16,968 nt of DNA from IMG/VR virus record IMGVR_UViG_2537562190_000012. One strand, written 5' to 3'. How positions within the stretch are numbered: the first letter of the stretch is position 1; every line of letters begins with the position of its first letter. Shown here one piece after another: positions 994 to 16,968 of the stretch. A program made the position numbers and the translations under genes. Origin of the DNA: a virus. Lineage: Duplodnaviria > Heunggongvirae > Uroviricota > Caudoviricetes. The notes beneath the pieces were generated by a model that was not told the DNA's origin, ran no database searches, and saw only the letters and a list, made by a program, of their open reading frames with translations.

Positions 994-1144
994 TACTCCC
1001 ACATGGGGAAATCTCGGTATATGGGGCGACCGCCTTCTGGATGCACTGGAAACCTGTAACGCGGATAAACGGGCCATTGAATTACTGGAACAGCGCCGGC
1101 TGCAACGACTGAACAACGAGGACAACAACCATGCTGAAAACTGA
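824..1144 (+). CDS. lysC: o-spanin lipoprotein (Rz1-like, P2 LysC equivalent)
   Basis: ORF in a different frame overlapping the 3' part of lysB. Signal peptide with lipobox LLTGC, and a proline-rich mature part. GTG 824 is preceded by GGAGAGG (808-814); the alternative start is ATG 854. Confidence 0.75.
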   Translation: MNSYATILQKMNAPTLCLTLVLLTGCAGTQNAPRPAPSVRLIPQTLTIPVMPPPFPDTPTWGNLGIWGDRLLDALETCNADKRAIELLEQRRLQRLNNEDNNHAEN

Positions 1145-1598
1145 TTCCCTGCGTGAAGCCATGACCCGTTCATGCCGATGGTGTCAGGCCAACCCGGAAA
1201 AATTCACCATTTTCGTGGAGAGCGGCAACATTGAAACGACCGGAGAAACGCCCTCGTTTGTTTACCGCTATCAGATGGTGATGTTTGTCATGGATTACGC
1301 CGGGGAGCTGGACGACCTCACGCTGCCGCTACTGGCGTGGTTATCCGAAAATCAGCCACAGTTGTTGCTCAACCCTGAGCGTAATCAGGACATCAAATTC
1401 TCCGCCGTTATCAATGACGATGACAGCGCCGATCTCCTGTTTACGCTCCCCCTGCGGGAACGCGTTCGCATTACGCGCAACAGTCAGGGGACACCGCAGG
1501 CAGAACACCTGCCGGAGCCAAAACCCCGTCTGCCCTCTTCCGAAGGCGACTGGTCGCATGTATTCCAGGATGTGACGTGGGGTGAAAGCGATAGATAA
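1131..1598 (+). CDS. R: Tail completion protein R (P2 gpR family)
   Basis: 155 aa, the same length as P2 gpR as I recall it. Position after the lysis genes. ATG 1131 overlaps the lysC stop. Confidence 0.8.
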   Translation: MLKTDSLREAMTRSCRWCQANPEKFTIFVESGNIETTGETPSFVYRYQMVMFVMDYAGELDDLTLPLLAWLSENQPQLLLNPERNQDIKFSAVINDDDSADLLFTLPLRERVRITRNSQGTPQAEHLPEPKPRLPSSEGDWSHVFQDVTWGESDR

Positions 1599-2226
1599 GG
1601 CATTCACCCGCGTGGATGAAACCTTTGAGGCCATCCGCGACAGCCTGAATCAGCAGGCCATCAATAACATCGCCAGAAAGCTGGCACAGGATTTACGCCG
1701 CGCCCAGCAGGCGCGCATCCGGTCACAGAAAGCGCCGGACGGGACCGCATGGACACCACGCAGACGCCGCGTAACCCGGATACAGGAGCGCATTCGCTTT
1801 ATCTGGAATAACGAAGCACGCACGCTGAAAAACTGGCATCACGACACGGGGAAATACGGGCGAACCATTACCGGGTGGGATGAGGATAAAAACAATATCC
1901 GCACGTTTTACCGGGATGACATCGACCGTTTTCTGGAAATACGCACCCGGCGCATCAACCAGGACAGCACAAAGCGCGTCCCCATGTTCGTAAAACTGCG
2001 CACCGCCCGCTACCTGAAAGCCCGTGCAGATGCTTCCGGTGTGACGGTGGGTTACAGCGGCGTGGCTGCACGTATTGCACGCGTTCATCAGTTCGGTGAG
2101 CGCGATCAGGTTGCGCCGGGCATTTTCACCGATTACCCGGTACGTGAGCTGCTGGGTATCAGCCAGGCAGATGAACGCCTGATTTATAACACGGTGCTGG
2201 GCCGGATTGCGGAGGCTGTACGGTGA
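1582..2226 (+). CDS. S: Tail completion / virion morphogenesis protein S (P2 gpS family)
   Basis: ORF between R and V with its stop overlapping the V start (GTGA). Start is uncertain: GTG 1582 is the first start codon in frame, and a downstream GTG 1612 is possible. Product is longer than the roughly 150 aa expected for gpS. Confidence 0.7.
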   Translation: MKAIDKAFTRVDETFEAIRDSLNQQAINNIARKLAQDLRRAQQARIRSQKAPDGTAWTPRRRRVTRIQERIRFIWNNEARTLKNWHHDTGKYGRTITGWDEDKNNIRTFYRDDIDRFLEIRTRRINQDSTKRVPMFVKLRTARYLKARADASGVTVGYSGVAARIARVHQFGERDQVAPGIFTDYPVRELLGISQADERLIYNTVLGRIAEAVR

Positions 2227-2804
2227 GCGCAGAACTCATGCGACTGCTGAGCAACATCATCCGCACAGGGATTATCTCTGAAGTTGATGAGAAGTCCTGG
2301 TGCGTGCGCGTTCGCAGCGGCGAACTGGAAACAGGCTGGTTGCGCTGGAACACCACGCGCGCGGGAGCCTTCAATGTGTGGCTGCCGCCATCACCCGGCG
2401 AACAGGTGGTAATTGCCTGCATTGGCGGCAACCCGGAAACCGCCATGATAATTGGCAGCCTGTGGAGTGATGCCAGTCCGGCACCCGGCAAAAGCCTGAA
2501 AGAAATCGTGGTCAGCGCGCCGGACGGCGCGGTGTTCCGCTACGACGCGGACGCAGGCGCACTGAGTGCCAGCGGCATGAAAACGGCCACTTTGCAGGCA
2601 TCCGTCAGCGTGAAACTGGATACGCCCGTCGTGGAATGCACAAACCTTCTGAAAACAGCCGAGATTGACGTCACAAAAGGGGGAAAGATGAGCGGCAATA
2701 TCACGCACAGTGGCGGCGATTTCACCTCAAACGGCATCACAGTGCATACGCATAAGCACGGTGGCGTTAAAGGTGGCAGCGATTCGACAGGAGGCCCGCA
2801 GTGA
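2223..2804 (+). CDS. V: Baseplate spike protein V (P2 gpV family)
   Basis: 193 aa. The N-terminus (NIIRTGII) and C-terminal motifs (TKGGKMSGNITHSGGDFTSNGITVHTHKHGG) match gpV as I recall it. GTG start overlaps the S stop. Confidence 0.9.
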   Translation: MSAELMRLLSNIIRTGIISEVDEKSWCVRVRSGELETGWLRWNTTRAGAFNVWLPPSPGEQVVIACIGGNPETAMIIGSLWSDASPAPGKSLKEIVVSAPDGAVFRYDADAGALSASGMKTATLQASVSVKLDTPVVECTNLLKTAEIDVTKGGKMSGNITHSGGDFTSNGITVHTHKHGGVKGGSDSTGGPQ

Positions 2805-3151
2805 CAACCCGCTACACAGGAATGAACCCGGACGGGACGGGAAACCTGAACGATATGGAGCACCTGAAACAGTCAGTCAGGGACATCCTGACCACCCCGC
2901 TGGCAAGCCGGGTTATGCGACGGGAATATGGCAGCCTTGTGCCTGATTTGATTGACGAACCCATGAATAACACCACGCGTCTGCAATGCATGAGCGCTGC
3001 CGTGATTGCACTGACACGATGGGAACCCCGCATTGCCCTGGACGCCATCGACGTTGTCTGGAAGGCAGGAGGCCGCGCCGGGGTGACGCTGTCGGGCACT
3101 GTCATGCAGACCATGCAGAATGTTGAATTAACCATCACGCTGAGAGAGTAA
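2801..3151 (+). CDS. W: Baseplate wedge protein W (gp25-like, P2 gpW family)
   Basis: 116 aa. SD AGGAGG (2788-2793) before GTG 2801, overlapping the V stop. Sequence and size match gpW (RVMRREYGSL, TRWEPRI motifs). Confidence 0.9.
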   Translation: MTTRYTGMNPDGTGNLNDMEHLKQSVRDILTTPLASRVMRREYGSLVPDLIDEPMNNTTRLQCMSAAVIALTRWEPRIALDAIDVVWKAGGRAGVTLSGTVMQTMQNVELTITLRE

Positions 3152-3154
3152 ATC

Positions 3155-4051
3155 ATGCCTGCCGTTGACCTTTCCCAGTTACCGGAACCCGCCATCATCG
3201 CGGAGCCTGACTTTGAGGCAATTCTGGCTGACACAAAGGCCATGATGATTGCGTCCTATCCCGCCGAACAGCGTGAAGCCGTTTCCGCCGCGCTGGAGCT
3301 GGAATCAGAACCCCTTAACGTTATCGCTCAAACCATGTCGTTTCGTGAAATGCTGTTACGCCAGCGGGTTAACGAGGGCGCACGCGCCTGCATGTTAAGC
3401 CACGGTTCAGGGACAAACCTGGACAACCTCGCGGGCAATATGAACACAAAGCGCCTGGTTATCACTCCGGCAACGGATACCACCGACGCGGTGATGGAGA
3501 GCGACACCTCGCTGAGACTGCGGGCGCAGCGGGCGTATGACGGCCTGAGTGTTGCAGGCCCGTCAGGCGCATACGAGTATTTTGCACGCAGCGCCAGCGG
3601 TCTGGTGCGTGATGCGCGGGCCATCAGCCCGTCTCCGGCCTGTGTGACGGTTTCCATCCTGTCCACAGAGGGCGACGGCACAGCAACGGAGGCGTTGCTT
3701 AATACCGTTCGCGCTGTTCTGAATGCAGAGGATACCCGCCCGGTGGCCGACCGCCTTACTGTACAGAGCGCCAGAATCGTGACATGGCGGCTGAATGCAA
3801 AACTGTACTTTTACCCCGGCCCGGAATCCGAACCTATTCTGGCCGCGGCGGAATCGTCGTTCAGGAAGTGGCTGTCTGAGCAGGGGCTTATCGGTCAGGA
3901 CGTGGCGTTGTCAGCCATTGCTGCCGCACTGCATGTGCACGGTGTGCAACGCGTGGAGATAATCGAACCCACACAGAATATGGCCATCAGCGACATACAG
4001 GCGGCGCGCTGTGAGTCATTCACCATCAGCGAAGGTGGGCGTAATGAGTAA
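3155..4051 (+). CDS. J: Baseplate assembly protein J (P2 gpJ family)
   Basis: 298 aa, in the conserved V-W-J-I order. Stop overlaps the I start. Confidence 0.9.
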   Translation: MPAVDLSQLPEPAIIAEPDFEAILADTKAMMIASYPAEQREAVSAALELESEPLNVIAQTMSFREMLLRQRVNEGARACMLSHGSGTNLDNLAGNMNTKRLVITPATDTTDAVMESDTSLRLRAQRAYDGLSVAGPSGAYEYFARSASGLVRDARAISPSPACVTVSILSTEGDGTATEALLNTVRAVLNAEDTRPVADRLTVQSARIVTWRLNAKLYFYPGPESEPILAAAESSFRKWLSEQGLIGQDVALSAIAAALHVHGVQRVEIIEPTQNMAISDIQAARCESFTISEGGRNE

Positions 4052-4574
4052 TTCACTGTTACCGCCATCAGCCAGCAATTTCATGCGTTGTGCCGAAGCT
4101 GTCGGAACGCGCATTACAGACATTCCGGTAGACCTCAACACGCTGTGGTCGCCGGACACCTGCCCGGTGCATCTGCTGCCTTATCTCGCCTGGGCATTTT
4201 CCGTTGACCGCTGGGATCGCAACTGGCCGGAAGAGACAAAGCGACAGGTTATTCGTGATGCATGGCTGATACACCGACACAAAGGGACCATCAGCGCACT
4301 GCGCCGGGCCATTGAGCCGCTGGGATACCTCATTCGTGTGTCTGAGTGGTGGGAGTTCGGCGGAGAACCGGGAACATTTACCGTTGAAGTCGGCACGCTG
4401 GACAGTGGCGTGACGGAGGAAATGTATCTGGAAATGGAGCGGTTGATTGCTGATGCCCGCCCGGTCAGCCGCCACATGACAGGGCTGAATATCATTCAGG
4501 AGATCCCGGGGGATATTTTCGCGGCGGCAGCAACTTACGACGGTGAAGTCATTACCATTTATCCGGACGATTAA
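4044..4574 (+). CDS. I: Baseplate / tail fiber attachment protein I (P2 gpI family)
   Basis: ATG 4044 (176 aa) overlaps the J stop and is preceded by an SD-like GAAGGTGGG. The track ORF starts at an upstream in-frame GTG 4011. Confidence 0.85.
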
Positions 4575-4576
4575 GC

Positions 4577-6847
4577 ATGAGTACCACAACACGAAAATTT
4601 AAAACCATTATCACTGATACTGGTGCCAAAAAATTAGCTCAGGCAGCCGCGCCAGATGGTAATCCTGTCCACCTGACTCACATGGCCGTGGGCGACGGTG
4701 GCGGCACGTTGCCCACACCAGACAGTAAGCAGACCCGTCTGGTGCATGAGGTGTGGCGACATACTGTTAATCGCGTCATCCTGGACGCAACACATCAGAA
4801 CCGCATTATTGCGGAGCTGGTTATTCCTCCTGAAACGGGCGGATTCTGGATCCGGGAAATTGGTGTATTTGATGAGCACGGCGATTTGATCGCGGTGGGC
4901 AATACTGCCGAAAGTTACAAGCCAGCCGTTGCCGAAGGATCCGGACGTGCACAAACATTTCGCACCATTCTGACCGTATCCAGCACTGCCACCGTGGCGC
5001 TTACCGTGGATAACACCATGGTTATGGCCACAGTGGATTACGTGAATGACAAACTGAAAGAACATGAACAGTCACGACGTCACCCGGACGCCTCGCTGAC
5101 CGCAAAAGGCTTTGTTCAACTCAGTAGCGCCACCAACAGCACGTCTGAAGCACTGGCCGCAACGCCGAAAGCGGTCAAGGCAGCCTATGACCTTGCTAAC
5201 GGGAAATATACCGCACAGGACGCCACTACAGCGCGAAAAGGCATTGTCCAGCTCAGTAGCGCCACCAACAGCGATTCAGAAACGCTGGCGGCAACACCAA
5301 AGGCGGTAAAGGCAGCCTATGACCTGGCTAACGGGAAATACACCGCACAGGATGCAACAACAGCACAGAAAGGGATAATCCAGCTAAGCAGCGCGACCAA
5401 CAGCACATCTGAAACGCTTGCCGCGACACCAAAGGCAGTAAAAACAGCCTATGACAATGCTGAGAAACGTCTGCAGAAAGATCAGAACGGTGCGGATATC
5501 CCTGGCAAAGACACCTTTACGAAAAATATTGGTGCCTGCCGTGCCTTCGGTGGGTCAGTAAGCACAACAACAGGAAACTGGACGACTGCACAGTTTATCG
5601 AGTGGCTGGATTCTCAGGGAGCATTTAACCATCCATACTGGATGTGCAAGGGTTCCTGGTCTTATGGCAATAATAAAATCATTACTGATACTGACTGCGG
5701 TAATATTCATCTCGCCGGAGCTGTCATTGAAGTAATGGGGATAAAGTCAGCGATGACGATCCGCATTACCACACCGACCACCTCCACTGGTGGTGGAACA
5801 ACTAACGCCCAGTTTACCTATATTAATCACGGAACAGATTATTCACCTGGCTGGCGAAGGGACTATAACTCCAGAAATAAGCCAACGGCATCAGAGATCG
5901 GGGCGTTACCGTCAGGTGGAACAGCAGTATCATCAGTTAATCTGGCTTCAAAAGGTCAGGTAACCGCGCTGACAGACAATACGCAGGGGGCAACAGGTCT
6001 TGAGTTATACGAGGTGTATAACAACGGATATCCAACAGCGTATGGAAATATCATTCACCTGAAAGGGATGACAGCCGTTGGCGAAGGTGAGTTACTCATC
6101 GGCTGGAGTGGTACAAGCGGTGCTCATGCTCCGGCATTTATTCGTTCACGACGGGATACGACCGACGCAAACTGGTCGCCGTGGGCGCAGCTTTACACCT
6201 CGGCTCATCCTCCTGCAGAGTTTTATCCAGTCGGTGCACCAATCCCGTGGCCATCAGATACCGTTCCGTCTGGTTATGCCCTGATGCAGGGGCAGACTTT
6301 TGACAAATCTGCCTACCCGAAACTTGCAGCCGCTTATCCGTCAGGCGTGATCCCTGATATGCGTGGCTGGACGATTAAGGGCAAGCCCGCCAGTGGTCGT
6401 GCCGTATTGTCTCAGGAACAGGACGGCATTAAATCGCACACCCACAGCGCCAGCGTATCCAGTACGGATTTGGGTACGAAAACCACATCGTCGTTTGATT
6501 ACGGGACGAAAACAACCTCACTATTTGACTATGGGACCAAAACTACCAGTAACGCCGGGAGTCACACGCATTCAATACCAACATCAGATGGTGCAAACCA
6601 GTGGGGGAAAATTCCACTGACATCTGGGCGTCTGGCAACTCAATATACATCAGCAACAACAGGTTCCTCTGGCTCACATTCTCATACTGTAGGTATTGGT
6701 TCTCATCAGCACACTGTCGGTATTGGTGCACACACGCACTCCGTTGCGATTGGCTCACATGGACACACCATCACCGTAAACGCTGCTGGTAACGCGGAAA
6801 ACACCGTCAAAAACATCGCATTTAACTATATTGTGAGGCTTGCATAA
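4577..6847 (+). CDS. H: Tail fiber protein H (P2 gpH-like N-terminus; repeat-rich shaft; His-rich C-terminal tip)
   Basis: 756 aa. The N-terminal 170 aa or so closely resemble P2 gpH ([39 protein letters not shown]). Internal 44-aa tandem repeats and a C-terminal HxH-rich domain. Confidence 0.92.
5105..5480 (+). repeat. In-frame tandem repeat inside H: 132-nt (44-aa) unit, two full copies plus a partial third
   Basis: Unit KG[FI][VI]QLSSATNS[TD]SE[AT][27 protein letters not shown][RQ] begins at 5105, 5237 and 5369. Copies differ at many synonymous third positions. Confidence 0.85.
6473..6550 (+). repeat. In-frame 30-nt (10-aa) tandem repeat inside H, about 2.6 copies
   Basis: Peptide [10 protein letters not shown] / [10 protein letters not shown] / GTKTTS read directly from the translation. 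Nucleotide copies are diverged at synonymous sites. Confidence 0.8.
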
Positions 6848-7425
6848 TGGCATTCAGAATGAGTAAACAATCACGAACCCTCAAAATTTATAATCTGCTG
6901 GCCGGAACTAATGAATTTATTGGTGACGGTGACGCATATATTCCACCTCATACAGGTCTACCTGCAAACAGTACCGATATTGCACCGCCAGATATTCCGG
7001 CTGGCTTCGTGGCTGTTTTCAACACTGATGAGGCATCGTGGCATCTCGTTGAAGACCATCGGGGTTATACCGTCTATGACGTGGCTTCCGGCGACGCGTT
7101 ATTTATTTCTGAACTTGGCCCATTACCGGAAAATGTCACCTGGTTATCCCCGGAAGGGGAGTTTCAGAAGTGGAACGGTACATCCTGGGTGAAAGATGCA
7201 GAAGCAGAAAAACTGTTTCGGAGCCAGGAGGCGGAAGAAACAAAAAACAGCCTGATGCAGGTAGCTAGCGAGCATATTGCGCCACTTCAGGATGCTGTAG
7301 ATTTGGATATTGCGACGGAAGAAGAGGCATCGTTACTGGCTGCATGGAAGACATATCGGGTATTGTTGAATCGTGTTGATACAACAGTAGCAGCGGATAT
7401 TGAGTGGCCAGTCGCCCCACAATAA
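6847..7425 (+). CDS. G: Tail fiber assembly protein G (P2 gpG family)
   Basis: 192 aa. ATG overlaps the H stop (TAATG). Position immediately after the tail fiber gene. Confidence 0.85.
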
Positions 7426-7431
7426 AAAGAA

Positions 7432-7461
7432 AAAGCCATCGATAGAAATATCGATGGCTTT
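7432..7461. terminator. Bidirectional intrinsic terminator between G and the convergent minus-strand cargo gene
   Basis: Perfect 13-bp stem AAAGCCATCGATA / TATCGATGGCTTT with GAAA loop. On the minus strand it is followed by a T-rich tract (TTTTTCTTTTTATT), and on the plus strand by TATGTGCTCTATTTAT. Confidence 0.8.
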
Positions 7462-7468
7462 ATGTGCT

Positions 7469-8041
7469 CTATTTATACAATACAACACCGCTCTTTTTAG
7501 TTATATATGTGCAGTTCGATGGTATATCTTTATTTATAAAAGACATTGCGCCTATTTTTACATTATCCCCGATTTTACGTGATAATCCAATGATGCAACA
7601 ATTAGCTCCGATATCAACGTTACTACCAATTTTTACTCTTGAACCAGGTATGTCACCATCTATCTGTCCAATCGTAGTATTCTGTCGTAATACCAGATTT
7701 TCACCTGCATCAACAGCAAAATGAACAACAATTCCAGCATGATGGGGAATTGTTAACCCTTTTCCAATATTTGCTCCCAATCCTATTTCACAACCAAATT
7801 TGTTAATTATTTTACTGTTTAACTTTTTGGCTGCTTTTTTATGTAATTTATTACCATTAATATACATTTCGTTAGCCAACCGCCACCAGAAAAGGAAATT
7901 CCGGTTACGCTGCTTTTTCTCTCTTAAAAGCCTCCAGATATCCATACGTTTCCGCCGAATTACTTCATGTTTCCAGAAGTTTTTTAAATTAGTAGAGTTC
8001 CCAAATAAAACAAAGTGAATTGCCATTAAGTAAGACAGCAC
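7469..8041 (-). CDS. Hexapeptide-repeat (left-handed beta-helix) acetyltransferase, CysE/WcaB-like; cargo (moron) gene in a low-GC island
   Basis: ORF 7469..8074 in the track. Preferred start is GTG 8041 because AAGGAG (8053-8048) lies 6 nt upstream; ATG 8026 and GTG 8074 are alternatives. C-terminal half has serine-acetyltransferase-type hexapeptide repeats (GANIGKGLTIPHHAGIVV ... IGSNVDIGANCCIIG ... IGDNVKIGAMSFINKDIPSNCTYI). Strongly AT-rich compared with the flanking phage genes. Confidence 0.75.
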   Translation of the reverse strand: MLSYLMAIHFVLFGNSTNLKNFWKHEVIRRKRMDIWRLLREKKQRNRNFLFWWRLANEMYINGNKLHKKAAKKLNSKIINKFGCEIGLGANIGKGLTIPHHAGIVVHFAVDAGENLVLRQNTTIGQIDGDIPGSRVKIGSNVDIGANCCIIGLSRKIGDNVKIGAMSFINKDIPSNCTYITKKSGVVLYK

Positions 8042-8197: not shown

Positions 8198-8692
8198 TCA
8201 GAGCAGCCCCTTAACTGAGCTGGCCGCGCTATTAAGGGATGATGTCACCTTATCTTTGAAGCCGGACAACATATCGCTGAACGATGAGGATTGCAGGCGC
8301 TCCCGCAAATCCTCATCACAGCGTTCAAGAGTCAGTGAAAATTCTATCTTTTTCGCCTTACCGTAGCGATCAAACTCGGAGCGGGTCGTATTCGTTTCAG
8401 TCAGGACATACATGCCGTAAATCTGCCCGACGCCATCAATCAAAGGCCAGGGTCGTCCTGTATACGCCTGCGTGGTCAGCAGCGACAGCGACACTTCGCC
8501 ACCTGTAATTTCAGGATAAAGCACACCAGAAAGAACGATGCGATCATCACCTGCACCGATATACTGCCAGCTTGCTGAACGGTTAACGCGTTCATTTTTC
8601 ACATGCCGCCAGCTTTTGTTTTGCTGTAACTGCTGATGCGGCAGCGTGCGCAGCTCAAAAACAAACATGCCGTAGATCATCATCATGGCCAT
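8198..8692 (-). CDS. U: Tail protein U (P2 gpU family)
   Basis: 164 aa, with gpU-like motifs (FELRTLP, WRH, LSGVLYPEITGG, WPL.DG.G.IYGMYV). Immediately downstream of T on the same strand. Confidence 0.85.
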   Translation of the reverse strand: MAMMMIYGMFVFELRTLPHQQLQQNKSWRHVKNERVNRSASWQYIGAGDDRIVLSGVLYPEITGGEVSLSLLTTQAYTGRPWPLIDGVGQIYGMYVLTETNTTRSEFDRYGKAKKIEFSLTLERCDEDLRERLQSSSFSDMLSGFKDKVTSSLNSAASSVKGLL

Positions 8693-8698
8693 GACTCC

Positions 8699-11515
8699 TC
8701 AATCTTTATCGTAAAAACTGCCACGCCCGGCACGGGCACGCCGTTCCATTTCTGCCCTGACCATTTCACCGACCAGTTTCGCCAGTTCGCGGGGATTCTG
8801 CGTAACAACGTTATGCAGATGAACATGAATTTCACCACCAAATCCGGAGGCAACAGGCTCCCGGTTACGGGAAGTTACAGGAACTGATGCCACTGGAGAT
8901 CGTATGGCCTCCGCCACCGGGCGGGAGCTGGCCGCAACAACAGGGACCAGCGCCGGAGGCAGCGGTGCCGGGACCACGGGGGTGATATTAATTGCGGGGG
9001 CAGGCTTACTGACCTGCGCAATCTTCCGCTCCTGCCACTCCCCACGAACAGCAAGTGCGCGGGGCAGGTTCTTAAAGACAATATCGCCGGGGCCAATGCG
9101 TTTTTTCGTCTCATCAACCAGCTTACCTGTGTTATCAGCAATTTTGCTGAGTCTGCGTAGCGTCCCGGTATTGCTGTCTGTGAGCGGTTTGTTGTCTTTG
9201 GGTTTATCACCTCCGGTGCCATTGCCATTTTCCACAGGCTTCGGCGGATTGATTTTCGCCAGGTCCCCCTGAAGTAAGGCAACCTTGTCCCGAAGAATGG
9301 CCGCACGCTGTGCGTCTTCGATTTTCTTGCGCGCCCTTTCAGCTTCATCCGGAAGGACGCCAAGTTTTTCAAGTATCCACGCCAGCGTATCCAGTAGCAT
9401 TTTTGCAGGTGTCAGAACAAGTTGTAACGCACCGCCAAGAACGTTACCGAATATCTCGCCAGCACTGGTACATTTATCCAGCGTTTCCTTGCTGGACTCC
9501 ATCGGTGACAGCAGCGATTTAAACCAGTTAAACACCTGGCTGATCCCGCTTCCGATTGCGTCAAAAACAGGGCCAAACCGTTCAAAGGTTTCGCGCAACG
9601 GGGTCAGCCTTTCCATAATCCCGCTGAACACCCCGGCAAAAAATGCCCTGATGGGATCCCAGTATTTCCAGATAAGAACGGCAGCTCCGGCAAGCGCAGC
9701 CACGATAAGACCAACCGGACTGAACAGCGCCCCGATAGCGCCTCCCAGCAAAGAAACGGAACCCGTCAGCATTCCCCACAGCGCAGGCAACACCCTGACG
9801 ACATTCATTGACCGGGTAAGAATGTCAAAACCAAGACGCAGGGTGGCCAGCTTTCCGTAAAGCACCCCAATAACCAGCGACAACGAGCGAATCGTTGCAG
9901 TCATTGCCAGCAACGCACCGCCTGCTATCAGTAGCTGGCGTGTCAGTACCGGATGGGCCTGCGCCAGCGAGGTGATTTTTTCAAGCACCCGCGTGAGCCA
10001 CTGCGTGACAGAACGCAGCGGACCGTCAACCAGATCACTGATGCGAATACGAAGACCTTCCCATGCGCTGTCGAGATTTTTCAGGTCCCCATCAAGATTA
10101 TCGGCCATTACTTTTGCGACGCGATCGACCTCTCCCCTTGCCCCCTGCAATTCTCTGGTCAGTTTTTGCAGCTCTCCTGAACCAGCCGCCGCAACAAGCG
10201 TCTGCAAACCAACGAACGCCTCTTCTCCGGCGATGTCCTTGAAGAAGGAAACCTGGTCCACCTGTCCGTATTTTTGTGTCGCCTTATAGAGATCAAGCAG
10301 CACATCCTCCATCGGGCGCATTTTGCCCCTGGCGTCAGCAACTGACACCCCCAGCTCTTTCAGCGCATCAGCCGCAGCTTTTGGCGGTGATGCAAGGCGG
10401 GACAGACTTGCGCGCATGGCCGTACCAGCATCGCTTCCACGAAGACCATTACTGGCAAGCATCCCGGCCATGGCTGCCGCTTCTTCAAGACTGATACCAA
10501 GTTTTGCGGCAACCGGACCGGTATACTTCATGGTTTCGCCCAGCGCGCGTAAATCAGTATTGGTCCGGGTGAATGCCGCTGTCAGCGTATCGCCAACCCG
10601 GTCCATTTGATCGGCTGTCAGGTTGAACTGTGTGAGGATATTGGAGCCTATATCAGCCGTCTCGCCGAGTTCGACGCCACCTGCCAGCGCCATATTAAGA
10701 ACACCGGGCAATGCGGCCTGAATGGCCTGCGGAGTAAAACCAGCCATTGCCAGAAAGCTCTGCCCACTGGCGGCATCACTCGCAGTAAACGGTGTTTCAG
10801 ATCCAAGTTTTAACGCCTGCTCACGCAGCGCCTTAAACTGCGGGCTGTTTTTGTCGATTCGCGTCAGTGCCTGAACGCGGGACATCTCTTTGCCGAACCC
10901 GATCGCAGGCTGCAAAAAACGCCCGGCAGCATAGCCGCCCGCCGCTGCCGCACCAATTGCCAGTGCACCACCTGTTTTCAGTTTTCCCGCTGTTTCCTGC
11001 GCGCGCGAATACCGCTCACGCGCCCGCGTTACACGCGCAAGCGCCTGCCGTTCGCGTTCAAGCTGGTTGTTGTACTGTTCGGTGCGTCTGATGGCCTGCT
11101 GGATGGTGTTATCGCTGCCTGTCAGGGAAATGCCGTGGCGTTTCAGCTCTCCGCCAAGCTCCCGCATTTTTTGAATTTCCCGTGTGCGCGATTCATTCAG
11201 GCGTTCAAGCCGGGTGCTTAACTGCTGCATCAGCTTTTGTTGTTTTTCGCTGAGCACTGTACCCGTACGTTGTAACTGATTAAGGGCGTTAAGCTGGCGT
11301 CGTGCTTTCACGATGCCAGCATCCGCTTTACTGACAGCGTCACGGGCGCGCTCAAATGAACGCGCCTGACGCTCGAGATTTTTAATCGCCCCCTGCGTTC
11401 GCTGGATGGAGTCACCAAACTGCCCCATCAGGCGGCGGGCGTTTTCGGCAGGCCGGGTCAGCCTGTCAACGGCGCTGAAAGCGACCCGGATATCAAGAGT
11501 CTTCATTATCTGCAT
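8699..11515 (-). CDS. T: Tail tape measure protein T (P2 gpT family)
   Basis: 938 aa; long helical, A/L/Q/R-rich protein with central hydrophobic segments. Follows the E/E' chaperone genes. An alternative ATG lies at 11506. Confidence 0.9.
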   Translation of the reverse strand: MQIMKTLDIRVAFSAVDRLTRPAENARRLMGQFGDSIQRTQGAIKNLERQARSFERARDAVSKADAGIVKARRQLNALNQLQRTGTVLSEKQQKLMQQLSTRLERLNESRTREIQKMRELGGELKRHGISLTGSDNTIQQAIRRTEQYNNQLERERQALARVTRARERYSRAQETAGKLKTGGALAIGAAAAGGYAAGRFLQPAIGFGKEMSRVQALTRIDKNSPQFKALREQALKLGSETPFTASDAASGQSFLAMAGFTPQAIQAALPGVLNMALAGGVELGETADIGSNILTQFNLTADQMDRVGDTLTAAFTRTNTDLRALGETMKYTGPVAAKLGISLEEAAAMAGMLASNGLRGSDAGTAMRASLSRLASPPKAAADALKELGVSVADARGKMRPMEDVLLDLYKATQKYGQVDQVSFFKDIAGEEAFVGLQTLVAAAGSGELQKLTRELQGARGEVDRVAKVMADNLDGDLKNLDSAWEGLRIRISDLVDGPLRSVTQWLTRVLEKITSLAQAHPVLTRQLLIAGGALLAMTATIRSLSLVIGVLYGKLATLRLGFDILTRSMNVVRVLPALWGMLTGSVSLLGGAIGALFSPVGLIVAALAGAAVLIWKYWDPIRAFFAGVFSGIMERLTPLRETFERFGPVFDAIGSGISQVFNWFKSLLSPMESSKETLDKCTSAGEIFGNVLGGALQLVLTPAKMLLDTLAWILEKLGVLPDEAERARKKIEDAQRAAILRDKVALLQGDLAKINPPKPVENGNGTGGDKPKDNKPLTDSNTGTLRRLSKIADNTGKLVDETKKRIGPGDIVFKNLPRALAVRGEWQERKIAQVSKPAPAINITPVVPAPLPPALVPVVAASSRPVAEAIRSPVASVPVTSRNREPVASGFGGEIHVHLHNVVTQNPRELAKLVGEMVRAEMERRARAGRGSFYDKD

Positions 11516-12031
11516 TCCCGCTGCGAAGTGCCGCCCGCTCGCGCCAGCTAACCACTTCGCCGGGCGTCATCATGAAGATTTCGGCGGGCGACCAGTTAAA
11601 AATGGCGGCAATATCCGCCACCAGATCTTCGATGTGCTCAAAGCACACCAGGGTGATTACGCTGCCGTCTCCTGCACGCTCTTCGCGCCAGAGTCTGGCT
11701 CGCTCATAAAATTTACAGCCACAGCGCACAACTGAATAAAATCGCGTGACGACATTTTTTTAATCATCACTTCATCCAGTCGTGGCGAGGTCACGCGAGG
11801 CAACAGCATAAACATGGTATCCGCTTTCAGATTCAGCACATCAGACAGCGACAGACCACGCAGGGATCCAGCCTGCTCAATAGCCCCGGTGATCTCCACA
11901 TACGTGATTTTTTCGCCACCACGCTCAATTGGTCGGGTCAGTTTTACGCCACGTTCGACAGCCATATCCTCACCTGCCGTCACATCATCCGCCACGGTGT
12001 TATTCCGGTATCGAGTATCGATCTCTTTCAT
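11493..12031 (-). CDS. E': Tail assembly chaperone E+E' (predicted -1 frameshift fusion of E with the downstream overlapping frame)
   Basis: The downstream ORF 11493..11729 is in the -1 frame relative to E and ends overlapping the T start. An A7 run (minus strand, 11761-11755) sits in the overlap. The arrangement mirrors P2 E/E+E' and lambda G/GT. Confidence 0.6.
11657..12031 (-). CDS. E: Tail assembly chaperone E (P2 gpE family), zero-frame product
   Basis: 124 aa ORF with SD AAGGAG 7 nt upstream of ATG 12031. Lies between the tube gene and the tape measure gene. Confidence 0.8.
   Translation of the reverse strand: MKEIDTRYRNNTVADDVTAGEDMAVERGVKLTRPIERGGEKITYVEITGAIEQAGSLRGLSLSDVLNLKADTMFMLLPRVTSPRLDEVMIKKMSSRDFIQLCAVAVNFMSEPDSGAKSVQETAA
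11755..11761 (-). other. Candidate slippery site (A7 run) for the E/E' -1 frameshift
   Basis: Minus strand reads ATT AAA AAA ATG in the E frame. The -1 frame has a TAA immediately upstream of the run and then stays open into E'. Confidence 0.5.
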
Positions 12032-12086
12032 CAGTTGTCTCCTTTTCAGTCAGAGGCGGCGCACTGCGCCGCCTGCATATTACTTA

Positions 12087-12599
12087 TCAGCCAAGCCCAA
12101 GCGCGGAACGGATACGGTCAGGCACAATGTCCTTGCCGTCCTTCCGGTAGATGTGGTTCAGCAGGTCGATTTCCCACAGCGGACGATCGTTAACGCTCAG
12201 CTTGTAGTAGGTGTTTTTGACAGCGTAAGTGTGTGATGTGGCTTCGCCCTGTTTGGCTTCCCCCATATCAATTTCCGTCACACGCCCGCGCATCTCGATT
12301 TCATACAGATCACTTTCTGCATCGGTGTAGTATTCACCCGCAAAACGCAGCAACGTGCCGTCAATCGTGCCGCCATATTTAAGGAACAGCTCATGAACTG
12401 CGCCCCCCATGACAAAACTCGCATCAAGCGCAGAATCATCAAGACCGAGGTCGATACTCACCGCCCCCATCATGCCACCGCCACGATAGCTTTCAGTTTT
12501 GCGCGTCAGTTTAGGTGGAGTGACGGATGTCACCTTACCCACTTCGTTTTCACCATTCACAAACAGCGTAAAAAAGCGAAGATGTTTTGGTACAGCCAT
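12087..12599 (-). CDS. FII: Tail tube protein FII (P2 gpFII family)
   Basis: 170 aa, with gpFII-like motifs (VTPPKLTRK.E.YRGGGM, RFAG.Y, GEAKQGE). ATG overlaps the FI stop (TGATG); SD GGGAGGTG upstream. Confidence 0.9.
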   Translation of the reverse strand: MAVPKHLRFFTLFVNGENEVGKVTSVTPPKLTRKTESYRGGGMMGAVSIDLGLDDSALDASFVMGGAVHELFLKYGGTIDGTLLRFAGEYYTDAESDLYEIEMRGRVTEIDMGEAKQGEATSHTYAVKNTYYKLSVNDRPLWEIDLLNHIYRKDGKDIVPDRIRSALGLG

Positions 12600-13783
12600 C
12601 AGACACCTCCCAACACCGCAAATGCGGGATCAAAGTATTCATCAGTAAACGTCTGGTAAAGCTCCATATCTTCCAGCGGAGGAACGGGCGTATATTTGTA
12701 GCGAATACGCACACGCCCCTGACGTAAATCCGTGGTGCTGTTATCCACCACGTCATACCAGCACGACGCGCCAATCAGTTTCCCGGCAGTAACCAGCGAA
12801 TCCAGTTTTGCCCTGATGGCACTGATAACATCCTTCACGTTCGCAGGCGTCAGTGGACTGTCGATGGTTTCAAACTGCGCTTCCGCAATTGAATCAGCCA
12901 GCACCTGTGCGGTTCGGGTATACACCTCAAAGATGTAGGCGTTCGTTTCCGGTGTGCGGTTGCCCCAGAAGCGGAACCCGTTGCGACGAATAATGGTCGT
13001 GATTTCTTTGTTATTGAGGCTGTTGGCATCACTGTCTTCGGCCTGCAACGACCAGAACACATGCCTGGACATTCCCAGCACATTTTTAACCGGAACATTG
13101 GACAGCGATTTGTGCCAGCCCTGCTCATGGTCAATGTACGCACGAAGGCCGCACGCATAAGCAGGCGCGGGGAACGTTTCGTTTTCGCCACTTTTCGGGT
13201 TGTAGGCGATGAAGTCAGGCCATAAGAGCATCACTTCACGTTCGTTGAATTTCTGGCGGTAGGTAATCGCTTCAGCCATCGTGTTACAGCCGTGACATGA
13301 GGCATACACAAATGCGCGCAGTTTACCCGCAATCACGCACAGGGATTTTGTCACCGCCTCCGTGTCCAGCTCCGGCGCGGCCAGAATACGCGGACGGTAT
13401 CCGATGCTTTCATCCTGCTCTGCAACAAGCAGCGCATACATCCCCGTATAGCTGCCGTCATCCTCAGAACCACCGATAACCAGTTGATCCTGCGTCTTAC
13501 CGTCTTCTTCTTTGTGTTCAGCCACGCGAACGACGATCACCTTTGTGCTCACCTGGTCTGCGATGGCCTTAAGCGCACGATAAAGCGTCCCCGTTGTTCC
13601 GCATTTTCCCAGCACGTCATTGACGCGGGTCAGCAGTGTAGGCTTGTTCAGCGGGAACAGCTTCGCGTCCGCATCATCCGCCGTTGCCACGATACCGATA
13701 ACGCTGGAATCAACATCGTTAATCGCTGTTACCAGGTCGGTATTTTCCGTAACACGGGCACCATGAAAACGAGTTTCACTCAT
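12599..13783 (-). CDS. FI: Contractile tail sheath protein FI (P2 gpFI family)
   Basis: 394 aa, with motifs matching gpFI as I recall it (FPLNKP, LRAFVYASCHGC, DQEQGWHKSLSNV, IRRNGFRFWGNRT, YTPVPPLE). SD AAGGGG upstream of ATG 13783. Confidence 0.93.
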   Translation of the reverse strand: MSETRFHGARVTENTDLVTAINDVDSSVIGIVATADDADAKLFPLNKPTLLTRVNDVLGKCGTTGTLYRALKAIADQVSTKVIVVRVAEHKEEDGKTQDQLVIGGSEDDGSYTGMYALLVAEQDESIGYRPRILAAPELDTEAVTKSLCVIAGKLRAFVYASCHGCNTMAEAITYRQKFNEREVMLLWPDFIAYNPKSGENETFPAPAYACGLRAYIDHEQGWHKSLSNVPVKNVLGMSRHVFWSLQAEDSDANSLNNKEITTIIRRNGFRFWGNRTPETNAYIFEVYTRTAQVLADSIAEAQFETIDSPLTPANVKDVISAIRAKLDSLVTAGKLIGASCWYDVVDNSTTDLRQGRVRIRYKYTPVPPLEDMELYQTFTDEYFDPAFAVLGGV

Positions 13784-13940
13784 AGCTTCAGCCCCTTGTA
13801 TCCGTTAAATGATTCGGCAACAATCATCACCCACCACGCGCGTAATCTCACCCCTGCGCCGTTCTCCCGACCCGGCGACAACAAAAAGCAGTAACCCCCT
13901 CCGCACGCACATGCGACCATGCCGCACAGGGAGGGAACAG

Positions 13941-15050
13941 ATGACCGACACCACCATGCAATTGCTCAGTCAGGGCACAGACCCCGTAAAAATGCCGGAT
14001 TTTGATATTCTCGCGGAGGGTAAAACGCTGTCCGGCGTGGCAGAGCGCCTGATGAGCCTGTCGCTGACCGACAACCGGGGATTTGAGGCAGACCAGCTCA
14101 CCATCACGCTGGATGATGCGGATGGTCAGTTGCGGCTACCGCCACGGGGCGCGCGCCTGACGGTTCTCATTGGCTGGAAAGGCGAACCGCTGACAGAAAA
14201 AGGCTCTTACATTGTTGATGAAATCGCACACGAAGGACCGCCGGACAGGCTGACTGTTTCAGCCAGAAGCGCAGATTTTCGGGATGAATTTAACGTTAAA
14301 CGTGAGGTGTCCTGGCATGATGTGACCGTTGAGCGTGTGGTATCCGCCATCGCTCATCGGTACGGTCTGAAACCGCAAATCAGCGAAATGCTGATGGATA
14401 TCGAAATCGACCACGCCGACCAGACCGAAGAAAGTGACATGTCCTTCCTTACGCGCATGGCGGAAATGCTGGGCGCAATCACCACGGTAAAAAGCGGTAA
14501 TCTGTTATTCATCATGCCCGGCGGTGGCGTGAACGCACAGGGCCAGCCGTTGCCATCGTTCGCCATCACACGCAGCAGCGGCGATCGCCATCAGTTCCGC
14601 ATTGCTGACCGCGAGGCGTATACGGGGGTACGCGCTTACTGGCTTGATCTTAATTACGGGAAAAAGAAAAAAGTCAGCGTGAAACGCCGCAAACCGCCAA
14701 AACCGAAAAAAGAGAAAAGCAGCAGCCGTGAAGGTGATTATATGGAAGGCGCGGAAGGCAATGTGTTTGTGTTACGCAAGACTTATCAGAACGAGCAGGC
14801 AGCAAGACGCGCAGCGGCGGCAAAGTGGCAACAACTACAACGCGGAGCCGCATCATTCTCCATCACGCTGGCACGTGGACGAGCAGAACTCTACCCCGAA
14901 ATGCATGGCACGGTAACAGGATTTAAAAGCGAGATTGATAATCAGGACTGGATTATTGCAAAAGCCGAGCACACCATTGATAACAGCGGCTTTACCACGC
15001 AGCTTGAGCTTGAGGCAAAAATCCCGGAATGGATAGCGGAAACAGAGTGA
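13941..15050 (+). CDS. D: Tail protein D (phage late control gene D family)
   Basis: Track ORF 13809..15050. ATG 13941 is preferred because AGGGAGG lies 5 nt upstream. Protein has gpD-like features and a lysine-rich internal segment. Confidence 0.85.
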   Translation: MTDTTMQLLSQGTDPVKMPDFDILAEGKTLSGVAERLMSLSLTDNRGFEADQLTITLDDADGQLRLPPRGARLTVLIGWKGEPLTEKGSYIVDEIAHEGPPDRLTVSARSADFRDEFNVKREVSWHDVTVERVVSAIAHRYGLKPQISEMLMDIEIDHADQTEESDMSFLTRMAEMLGAITTVKSGNLLFIMPGGGVNAQGQPLPSFAITRSSGDRHQFRIADREAYTGVRAYWLDLNYGKKKKVSVKRRKPPKPKKEKSSSREGDYMEGAEGNVFVLRKTYQNEQAARRAAAAKWQQLQRGAASFSITLARGRAELYPEMHGTVTGFKSEIDNQDWIIAKAEHTIDNSGFTTQLELEAKIPEWIAETE

Positions 15051-15092: not shown

Positions 15093-15353
15093 ATGTTCCG
15101 TTGTCCGCTTTGTGGCGCATCTGCCCGTATCCGCACCAGTCGTCCGGAAAATGATTCAAACACCGTGCGGCAAAAGTATTACCAGTGTAACAACCTGGAA
15201 TGCGGCGTATGCTTCTCAACACTGGAAGCTTTCCATAAATTCACATCGAAACACGCCTCCGGCGTTCACTCATCAGAAGGTATCCCGTGGCATGAGCTGC
15301 CAGCTTCACACAGGGGAAACAATCAGATGAGTTTGCCTTTACCTCAGAATTAA
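15093..15353 (+). CDS. ogr: Ogr/Delta-family zinc-finger late transcription activator
   Basis: 86 aa. SD AAGGAGG 5 nt upstream of ATG. N-terminal CPLC ... QCNNLEC Cys4 arrangement as in P2 Ogr. Position after D. Confidence 0.85.
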   Translation: MFRCPLCGASARIRTSRPENDSNTVRQKYYQCNNLECGVCFSTLEAFHKFTSKHASGVHSSEGIPWHELPASHRGNNQMSLPLPQN

Positions 15354-15491: not shown

Positions 15492-16327
15492 TCAACCTAG
15501 CAAGTGATAGGTTAGCGCCTCTCCAACAAAGGAGCAAGCGCTTGTATGGGTCCACCACATATTGCAATTTTTATTCTCTTTTAAAATATATTCCACGGGC
15601 GTCATTAGTGCGAGCGCCTTGTGGGGTCTTTTGCTGTTATACAGCACCAGATATTCCGCCAGCTTCTGGTTAAATAGCGCCAGATCTTCAAAGAGTAAAA
15701 TCTCATTAAATTCAATAAACTGCTCTCTTAACGTCCGGTTAAAACGTTCACAGATAGCGTTCATTTTTGGCGTGTAGGGATAGGTCCAGAGGTGTTTGAT
15801 AGCGGCTTCCTGCAGCGTTTTGTCGAAGTTTCCCAGGAACTCTTTTCCGTTATCTGTGATTATCTGGCTGATACCGACCGGGAACAACCGGGCTGCGCGG
15901 CTGAAGAAGTGATTGACGATATCACTGTTGAGTGACGGCACAGCCAGCGCCAGCGCGTAATTGCTGCATTCGTCGATCATGGTGATGACATAGCGACGCA
16001 GTTCGCCCATTCTGAGCTCAATGGCGTCCATCCCAATGAGCTCACCTGTCTTTACCGGGCGGTAGTGCTTTGGCCTGCGGGGTTTGGCAGACCGCTTTTT
16101 GACAAGCAGTGCCTTCCCCCGCGATCCCAGACGCACAGGTATCATCCGCATTTTATCATGTGCGGCAGCGATCATTCTGCCGATGGTGGAAACACTCGGA
16201 CAGGCCAGATAGCGCTGTTCGCACCAGGGCTTCAGGCGAACAAAAATCTGCTCTTTACCGAGGTTCGGCAGCTCTGTCCTGAGGCGTCGAATCTCTTTCA
16301 GCACATCGGGATGCCAGTGTTTTTTCG
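15492..16327 (-). CDS. IS transposase OrfB (integrase-core / DDE domain), probably made as an OrfAB fusion by -1 frameshift
   Basis: Frame is open from 16343 downward. Integrase-core-like motifs (ITDNGKEF, YPYTPKMNAICERFNRTLRE). It is in the -1 frame relative to OrfA, with the heptamer A AAA AAC (minus strand, 16325-16319) in the overlap. Confidence 0.7.
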
Positions 16328-16579: not shown

Positions 16580-16872
16580 AGTGCAATCTCCCCTTACTTA
16601 TCCGGAGGCAATTGCAATATCTCTGTGAACTTACACAGTGCTATGTCGCAAAAATCGCTTACGGCCATCACGTTCTGCGTGACGGCAATCCTCATCATCT
16701 GGATGTTGCACGGTTCGCTGTGTGAAATACGGATGAGCTTCTGGGGAGCGGAGTTTGCGGCGTTCTTACAGTGTAAGCAGTAAGGAAACCGCGACGGGGG
16801 AGCAATCCCCCGTCAATCGGTTGCCAGGGTAAGGTCGATAAGGCACCCTATCTCACAGACATGAACAACAAA

Positions 16873-16904
16873 CCCGCAGCATAAAAACTGCGGGTTTTCT
16901 TTTT
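16873..16904 (+). terminator. Rho-independent terminator in the 3' flank
   Basis: Stem CCCGCAG (16873-16879) / CTGCGGG (16888-16894) with an 8-nt loop, followed by TTTTCTTTTT. Confidence 0.65.
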
Positions 16905-16968
16905 GGTGTCCTCACCGACTTGAAACAGTGATCAGACTATAAGACAAAGCCCACAATGTAGCGGGCTT

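Follow-up and report, generated by a model that had tools for sequence, protein, structure and literature searches.

An inverted tail-gene block and a putative shared late promoter in the P88-like lineage of P2-related phages

How does a P2-like phage come to carry most of its tail genes on the strand opposite to its other late genes, and how would gene D, separated from them, be expressed? The question is raised by a stretch of viral DNA of 16,968 nucleotides (hereafter the window), in which the block from FI to U points away from D and ogr. The window covers the right, late-gene half of an Escherichia coli prophage of the P88-like group (Xuanwuvirus, Peduoviridae), a P2-like element of 35 kb located between yecA and the leuZ-cysT-glyW tRNA cluster. 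Directly after ogr there is a toxin gene of the hok/gef family (15543-15683), and a cluster of tRNA-Leu, tRNA-Cys and tRNA-Gly (16695-16968) forms the chromosomal side of the prophage end; both sets of coordinates come from the RefSeq annotation of L002.

The identities of the genes in the window were agreed by the open reading frame listing, by tblastn with P2 proteins and by Pfam (Table 1). Homologues of FI, FII, E/E', T, U and D were found in the internal order of P2, with tblastn E-values from 1e-112 to 1e-13. In the tail module, amino-acid identity to P2 is 33-48%; for V to I it is 44-61%. The P2 record (NC_001895) has V-W-J-I-H-G, FI-FII-E-T-U-D and ogr on the same strand, with the stop codon of U (22312-22791) overlapping the start of D (22791-23954), in agreement with the collinear P2 order given in the initial annotation. 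The window shares with the P2 F operon its genes, their internal order, the E/E' frameshift arrangement, an Ogr-type activator and a dyad upstream of FI. However, while the P2 operon runs the same way as V-G, with D translationally adjacent to U, in the window FI through U (8198-13783) lie on the minus strand, D and ogr on the plus strand, and FI and D diverge across 157 bp, as the initial annotation had described. A single F operon of the P2 type, with D right after U on the same strand, is therefore absent from the window, and the gene map set against the P2 record bears out a real inversion of the FI-U block.

Table 1. Genes and predicted regulatory features of the window, with strand and basis of assignment.
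Feature	Position	Strand	Basis or remark
R, S, V, W, J, I, H, G	1131-7425	+	tblastn with P2 proteins
V-W-J-I-H-G, baseplate and tail-fibre genes	2238-7425	+	tblastn; RefSeq annotation of a 99.4% identical prophage
Palindromic hairpin with T-run, 13-bp stem	7432-7461		terminator scan, hit on minus strand; between convergent G and cargo gene
Cargo gene, hexapeptide-repeat (LbetaH / serine-acetyltransferase-like) protein, 35% G+C	7469-8041	-	Pfam; slot variable among relatives
Cargo sigma-70-like promoter, TTGAAT-17-TATAAT	8121-8093	-	promoter scan
U, tail protein (Phage_P2_GpU)	8198-8692	-	tblastn, Pfam
T, tape measure protein (PhageMin_Tail)	8699-11515	-	tblastn, Pfam
E' (Phage_P2_GpE)	homology about 11493-11648; reading frame 11493-11729	-	tblastn, Pfam
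E, tail assembly chaperone	11657-12031	-	weak Phage_TAC_7 match; 33-35% identical to P2 E
FII, tail tube (Phage_tube)	12087-12599	-	tblastn, Pfam
FI, tail sheath (Phage_sheath_1)	12599-13783	-	tblastn, Pfam
FI/D divergent intergenic region, 157 bp	13784-13940		proposed bidirectional late promoter
Predicted pF -10, GATGAT	13828-13823	-	offsets 43-48 from dyad centre; predicted start near 13816
Ogr-box-like dyad, GTTCT-N12-ACAAC	13861-13882		core TCT 13863-65, ACA 13878-80; centre 13871.5
Predicted D extended -10, TG-c-GACCAT	13912-13920	+	offsets 40-48 from dyad centre; predicted start near 13927
D, baseplate hub / late control D protein (Phage_GPD)	13941-15050	+	tblastn, Pfam, RefSeq annotation
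ogr, Ogr/Delta zinc-finger late activator (CX2C-X24-CX4C)	15093-15353	+	tblastn; Pfam Ogr_Delta E = 5e-14

Some details of the gene map bear on how the block is read. The start of D adopted here is preceded by a GGAGGG Shine-Dalgarno sequence and agrees with the RefSeq annotation; a longer open reading frame (13809-15050) was considered and rejected, as the conserved ATG and the Shine-Dalgarno sequence correspond to 13941. In the E/E' pair, a candidate slippery heptamer, A_AAT_TTT, is found on the minus strand at 11714-11708, about 17 codons ahead of the E stop, and the -1 frame downstream of it is open through to 11493, which makes it a candidate site for a -1 frameshift by which E' could be reached from E. 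Outside the inverted block, the tail-fibre gene H contains three tandem 132-nt repeats, 75-84% identical, at 5104-5499.

The arrangement is not peculiar to this prophage. The genus Xuanwuvirus includes P88, 500465-2 and P884B11, with the Citrobacter phage Shae_phiSM also close, and all four have the U-T-E-FII-FI and D-ogr order and orientation of the window together with the same overall prophage map. These phages, as well as PhiR44_2 and Chuche, align with the window from U to ogr without interruption, over 7.2 kb and at 91-96% identity (93.4% for P88 and 95.9% for 500465-2, each in one piece and, for the part of the genome compared with the window, with the same annotated order). Order and strands in the P88 annotation are those of the window. 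P88 and phiSM have been described as inducible or spontaneously active, infectious phages (PMC5285337, PMC6456863), so the inverted layout is functional. Two P88-like phage records, 520873 and 503458, carry an insertion of IS100 (IS21 family) within the tail gene block.

Beyond the genus, a scan with the D protein, limited to one genome per species, detected 47 loci spread over some 20 genera, among them Salmonella, Citrobacter, Klebsiella, Enterobacter, Kosakonia, Serratia, Erwinia, Pantoea, Pectobacterium, Brenneria, Edwardsiella and Symbiopectobacterium. FI was on the minus strand, divergent from D and ogr on the plus strand, in every locus that reached it (43/43), and U, T, E and FII were on the minus strand wherever they were covered. 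The same layout is common to SEN5 (Salmonella, Senquatrovirus) and Kp4871-3 (Klebsiella, Reginaelenavirus). Senquatrovirus (SEN4/SEN5) and Reginaelenavirus (3LV2017-like) differ from the window in that their D is only 63-70% identical and in having other cargo and other early regions. Two contigs filed under Firmicutes, L006 (Vagococcus sp. WN89Y) and L047 (a Planococcaceae MAG), carry a D that is 98-99% identical to that of the present E. coli/Salmonella prophage; the gene layout of L006 is that of the window, L047 holds part of D plus ogr only, and both are most likely contaminated assemblies.

Other P2-related phages have the order of P2: Wadgaonvirus 500465-1 and Shewanella phage M16-3 are collinear. 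When all phage records were searched by tblastn with a fusion of the U and D proteins, the two genes were adjacent and on the same strand in 395 of 526 records, among them phages of Pseudomonas, Burkholderia, Ralstonia, Mannheimia and Vibrio and even Mu-like phages. They were separately placed in about 50 records, a number close to that of the records whose best place is at least 60% identical (48); among the matches listed, the split always went with a D at least 60% identical and collinear adjacency always with a D below 60%. Because U-D adjacency is the rule elsewhere, the inversion is a derived character of a single clade. Judged from these comparisons, it is fixed in, and ancestral to, a clade that takes in Xuanwuvirus, Senquatrovirus, Reginaelenavirus and the prophages of about 20 genera of Enterobacterales, and has existed long enough to extend across three ICTV genera. 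The comparison with relatives that the initial annotation had called for thus has two sides: P2 is collinear, as stated there, but the close relatives have the orientation of the window, which is consequently not unusual among them. The inversion is real; it is not an event of this genome, but the fixed ancestral architecture of a P2-like clade.

D is uncoupled from the F operon and needs a promoter of its own, as had been pointed out initially. In an alignment of FI/D intergenic regions from 28 diverse, non-redundant relatives, the motif T(G/C)T-N12-ACA (extended GGTTGT...GACAACAAA) stands in the same column in all of them (14 perfect, 12 with one mismatch and two with two mismatches). Its spacing is invariant and its spacer sequence variable, and it is one of a few conserved blocks in an alignment that otherwise varies freely. 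TGT-N12-ACA is the consensus of P2 late promoters (PMC3931495). In late promoters of this type the dyad is centred about 55 bp upstream of the start site. The window carries TCT-N12-ACA (13863-13880), with one mismatch to this consensus and with a position relative to the start site that is predicted from -10-like elements at offsets 43-48. Because of this TCT variant, an exact search of the window for TGT-N12-ACA, which returned two hits, none of them in the FI/D intergenic region, missed the site, and it was seen only through the alignment of the 28 relatives. The distance from the dyad centre to the ATG of FI is 88.5 nt in the window and has a median of 83 nt over the clade, as compared with 82.5 for P2 pF and 85.5 for Wadgaonvirus, and that to the ATG of D has a median of 69 nt and a range of 67.5-76.5 in the 28 sequences.

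A second copy of nearly the same words, GTTCT-N12-ACAACAAAAGC, lies between P and O in the same prophage (L004 22120-22141). Exact matches to the ten bases of the dyad would be expected 0.07 times in 35 kb, and three were observed. In SEN5, Kp4871-3 and the E. coli prophage, representing three genera, the best-scoring dyads genome-wide are exactly those of the P/O and FI/D gaps, and the dyad is thus shared by Senquatrovirus and Reginaelenavirus in both places. The third exact match to GTTCT-N12-ACAAC lies on the minus strand inside T, the tape measure gene (9421-9442).

The best inverted repeat of the whole window involves the FI/D site: positions 657-679, within a lysB-like (DUF2570) gene, pair with 13860-13882 over 23 nt at 91% complementarity, that is, with the FI/D Ogr-box including its spacer. 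P88 has the 657-679 site too, and it was not found in SEN5 or Kp4871-3. It was considered as a stand-in for the P2 promoter pV and rejected, as neither strand has a convincing -10 at the offset where one would be expected; it may be an additional site for Ogr, or it may have arisen by chance.

Around the FI/D dyad, a weak -10 in which A2, A5 and T6 are conserved can be recognized on both sides, at offsets 43-48 outward from the dyad centre, together with, on the D side, a conserved TG at offsets 40-41, as in an extended -10. In P2 pF the -10 is at offsets 44-49 and the mapped start at 56. The predicted starts of D and FI would be about 110 bp apart and the predicted D leader only about 14 nt long. 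A consensus scan of the 157-bp region found no sigma-70 -35/-10 pair; the -10 candidates GACCAT and GATGAT match three and four of six positions, respectively, and the combination of a missing -35 and a weak -10 is that of P2-type late promoters. Late promoters of the P2 type depend on Ogr and on the alpha subunit of RNA polymerase, and a cognate activator of the Ogr/Delta zinc-finger type is encoded by the phage itself. There is a known precedent for such a geometry in the P2 pP/pO region, where one activator site (3057-3087) serves starts at 3016 and 3127, 111 bp apart. As in pP/pO, the FI/D region has one central dyad of the TGT-N12-ACA type in a divergent gap of about 155-175 bp, with starts (predicted in the window) about 55 bp to each side; unlike pP/pO, it is located elsewhere in the genome, would drive tail genes (FI-U and D-ogr) and is predicted from sequence.

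Conservation and geometry therefore argue for a model in which the FI/D region is a mirror-symmetric bidirectional Ogr-dependent late promoter, made by the inversion, that would keep D in the late regulon together with an ogr under direct, positive autoregulation. We consider this model reasonably probable, somewhat less so than the inversion history set out below. Its main competitor is that D and ogr are expressed from an ordinary promoter independent of Ogr, the conserved dyad serving pF only. Such a possibility has some appeal, since in P2 a separate promoter between D and ogr serves ogr, and a sigma-70-like match exists inside D (14913-14942). We nevertheless regard it as unlikely, given the result of the consensus scan, the location of the D-side -10 at the exact mirror offset of the FI-side -10, and the constancy of the distance from dyad to D in the 28 divergent sequences. 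Moreover, the D-side block, a G+C-rich run followed by the -10, is similar to the promoter on the P side in this phage.

S ends at 2226 and V begins at 2238, with orf30 missing, and because just 11 nt lie between them there is no room for a separate P2-like pV promoter; the head/lysis operon and the V-G operon appear to be fused in the window phage. The S/V gap of SEN5 is 157 bp and contains a perfect TGT-N12-ACA (L056 9263-9280).

Our overall reading, to which we assign a probability of roughly 0.8, is that the window represents a P88-like late half in which the segment from pF to U was inverted in the ancestor of the clade, probably leaving D on a second late promoter that shares the pF activator site. 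The segment from the pF promoter through U would have been inverted in place in the common ancestor, with one breakpoint upstream of the pF activator site and the other exactly at the U/D boundary, to give the now fixed layout G> <U <T <E/E' <FII <FI, D> ogr>. This event would have brought the dyad-symmetric Ogr-binding site of pF to a position some 69 bp ahead of the start codon of D. D would then be transcribed, and ogr probably along with it, from the other face of the same single activator site, D having gained a -10 at the mirror position of the pF -10, while FI-U would retain the original pF geometry. The convergent ends of G and U would now face the hairpin, with the variable cargo slot between them. 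As ogr begins 42 bp after D, it would come under its own control late in infection, an effect that P2 obtains in equivalent form by read-through from pF.

An alternative origin would be mosaic replacement, in which the FI-U module of another phage was taken up in reverse. P2-like phages are mosaic, with tail modules rearranged in some of them (Smp131, PMC3931495), and the absence of any remaining breakpoint scars would be compatible with it. However, the block and its neighbours have diverged from P2 to a uniform extent (FI 46%, FII 44% and U 46%, against D 48%, V 45% and W 44%), divergence from the collinear 500465-1 is likewise uniform, and the spacing from pF to FI has been kept (83 versus 82.5 nt). 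This uniformity favours inversion in place, and we consider replacement to be quite improbable.

Much less plausible is that the block is a phase-variable segment flipped by a site-specific invertase, for instance the Gin/Cin-type enzyme beside U in P88. The idea draws on the position of a DNA invertase gene directly adjoining the F module in P88 and in the collinear 500465-1, but the orientation of the invertase is the same in phages of the inverted and of the collinear layout, no invertase is present in the window, and the intergenic geometry is kept across genera. Inverted repeats at the two junctions, whose search had been proposed in the initial annotation, were not found in any of four genomes from three genera (the window, P88, SEN5 and Kp4871-3), and because of this an inversion mediated by repeats or by an invertase is neither supported nor traceable. 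The alternative orientation was also sought directly, with an artificial query in which the end of U was joined to the start of D as in P2. Both halves of this query matched in 1414 E. coli genomes, and none of the 1414 had at least 80% coverage of it in one place; the real FI/D junction was covered in one place in 1109 genomes. Finally, an assembly artefact, in which the FI-U block would have been mis-oriented when the genome was assembled, has nothing in its favour but the difference from P2 and can be excluded, as the full 8.6-kb stretch including both junctions is found with at least 80% coverage in one piece in 1351 complete E. coli genomes, and uninterrupted, with a best identity of 99.4%, in many that were assembled independently, the independently sequenced viable phages share the layout, and the collinear junction occurs in none of the 1414.

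The initial annotation had also left room for the cargo gene between G and U to be part of the inversion, and this is not the case. The slot is occupied by a low-G+C acetyltransferase-like gene in the window; P88 has alternative tail-fibre segments there together with a DNA invertase system, and SEN5 has nothing. It is the counterpart of the variable Z/fun position in P2 and has no part in the inversion. Transcription of FI-U is likewise directed towards the strong hairpin between G and the cargo gene, which may act as a terminator in both directions. A stretch from 6800 to 8033, covering the 3' end of H, G and the cargo gene, is 92% identical to a stretch of the unrelated phages vB_EcoM-Ro157c2YLVW and JL22, in which the annotated genes are fibre, tfa and serine acetyltransferase. 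The fibre end seems to move as one cassette with the tfa and acetyltransferase genes.

The inverted arrangement is already in public records, and is the ordinary architecture of P88-like phages and their sister genera. The literature on P88, SEN4/5, Xuanwuvirus and P2-like phages, with thin coverage of subscription journals, yielded no description of the inversion or of a D promoter. For annotation, divergent FI and D genes should be taken as a normal marker of the lineage (Xuanwuvirus, Senquatrovirus and Reginaelenavirus) and not as a sign of misassembly or recent rearrangement. The proposed shared bidirectional late promoter is a modest but testable addition. The clade appears to use two shared bidirectional activator sites, P/O and FI/D, as compared with the three of P2 (the shared pP/pO, pV and pF). 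The FI/D promoter, if it was made by the inversion as proposed, would offer a clear illustration from nature of the way in which a symmetric activator site can buffer a rearrangement that splits an operon.
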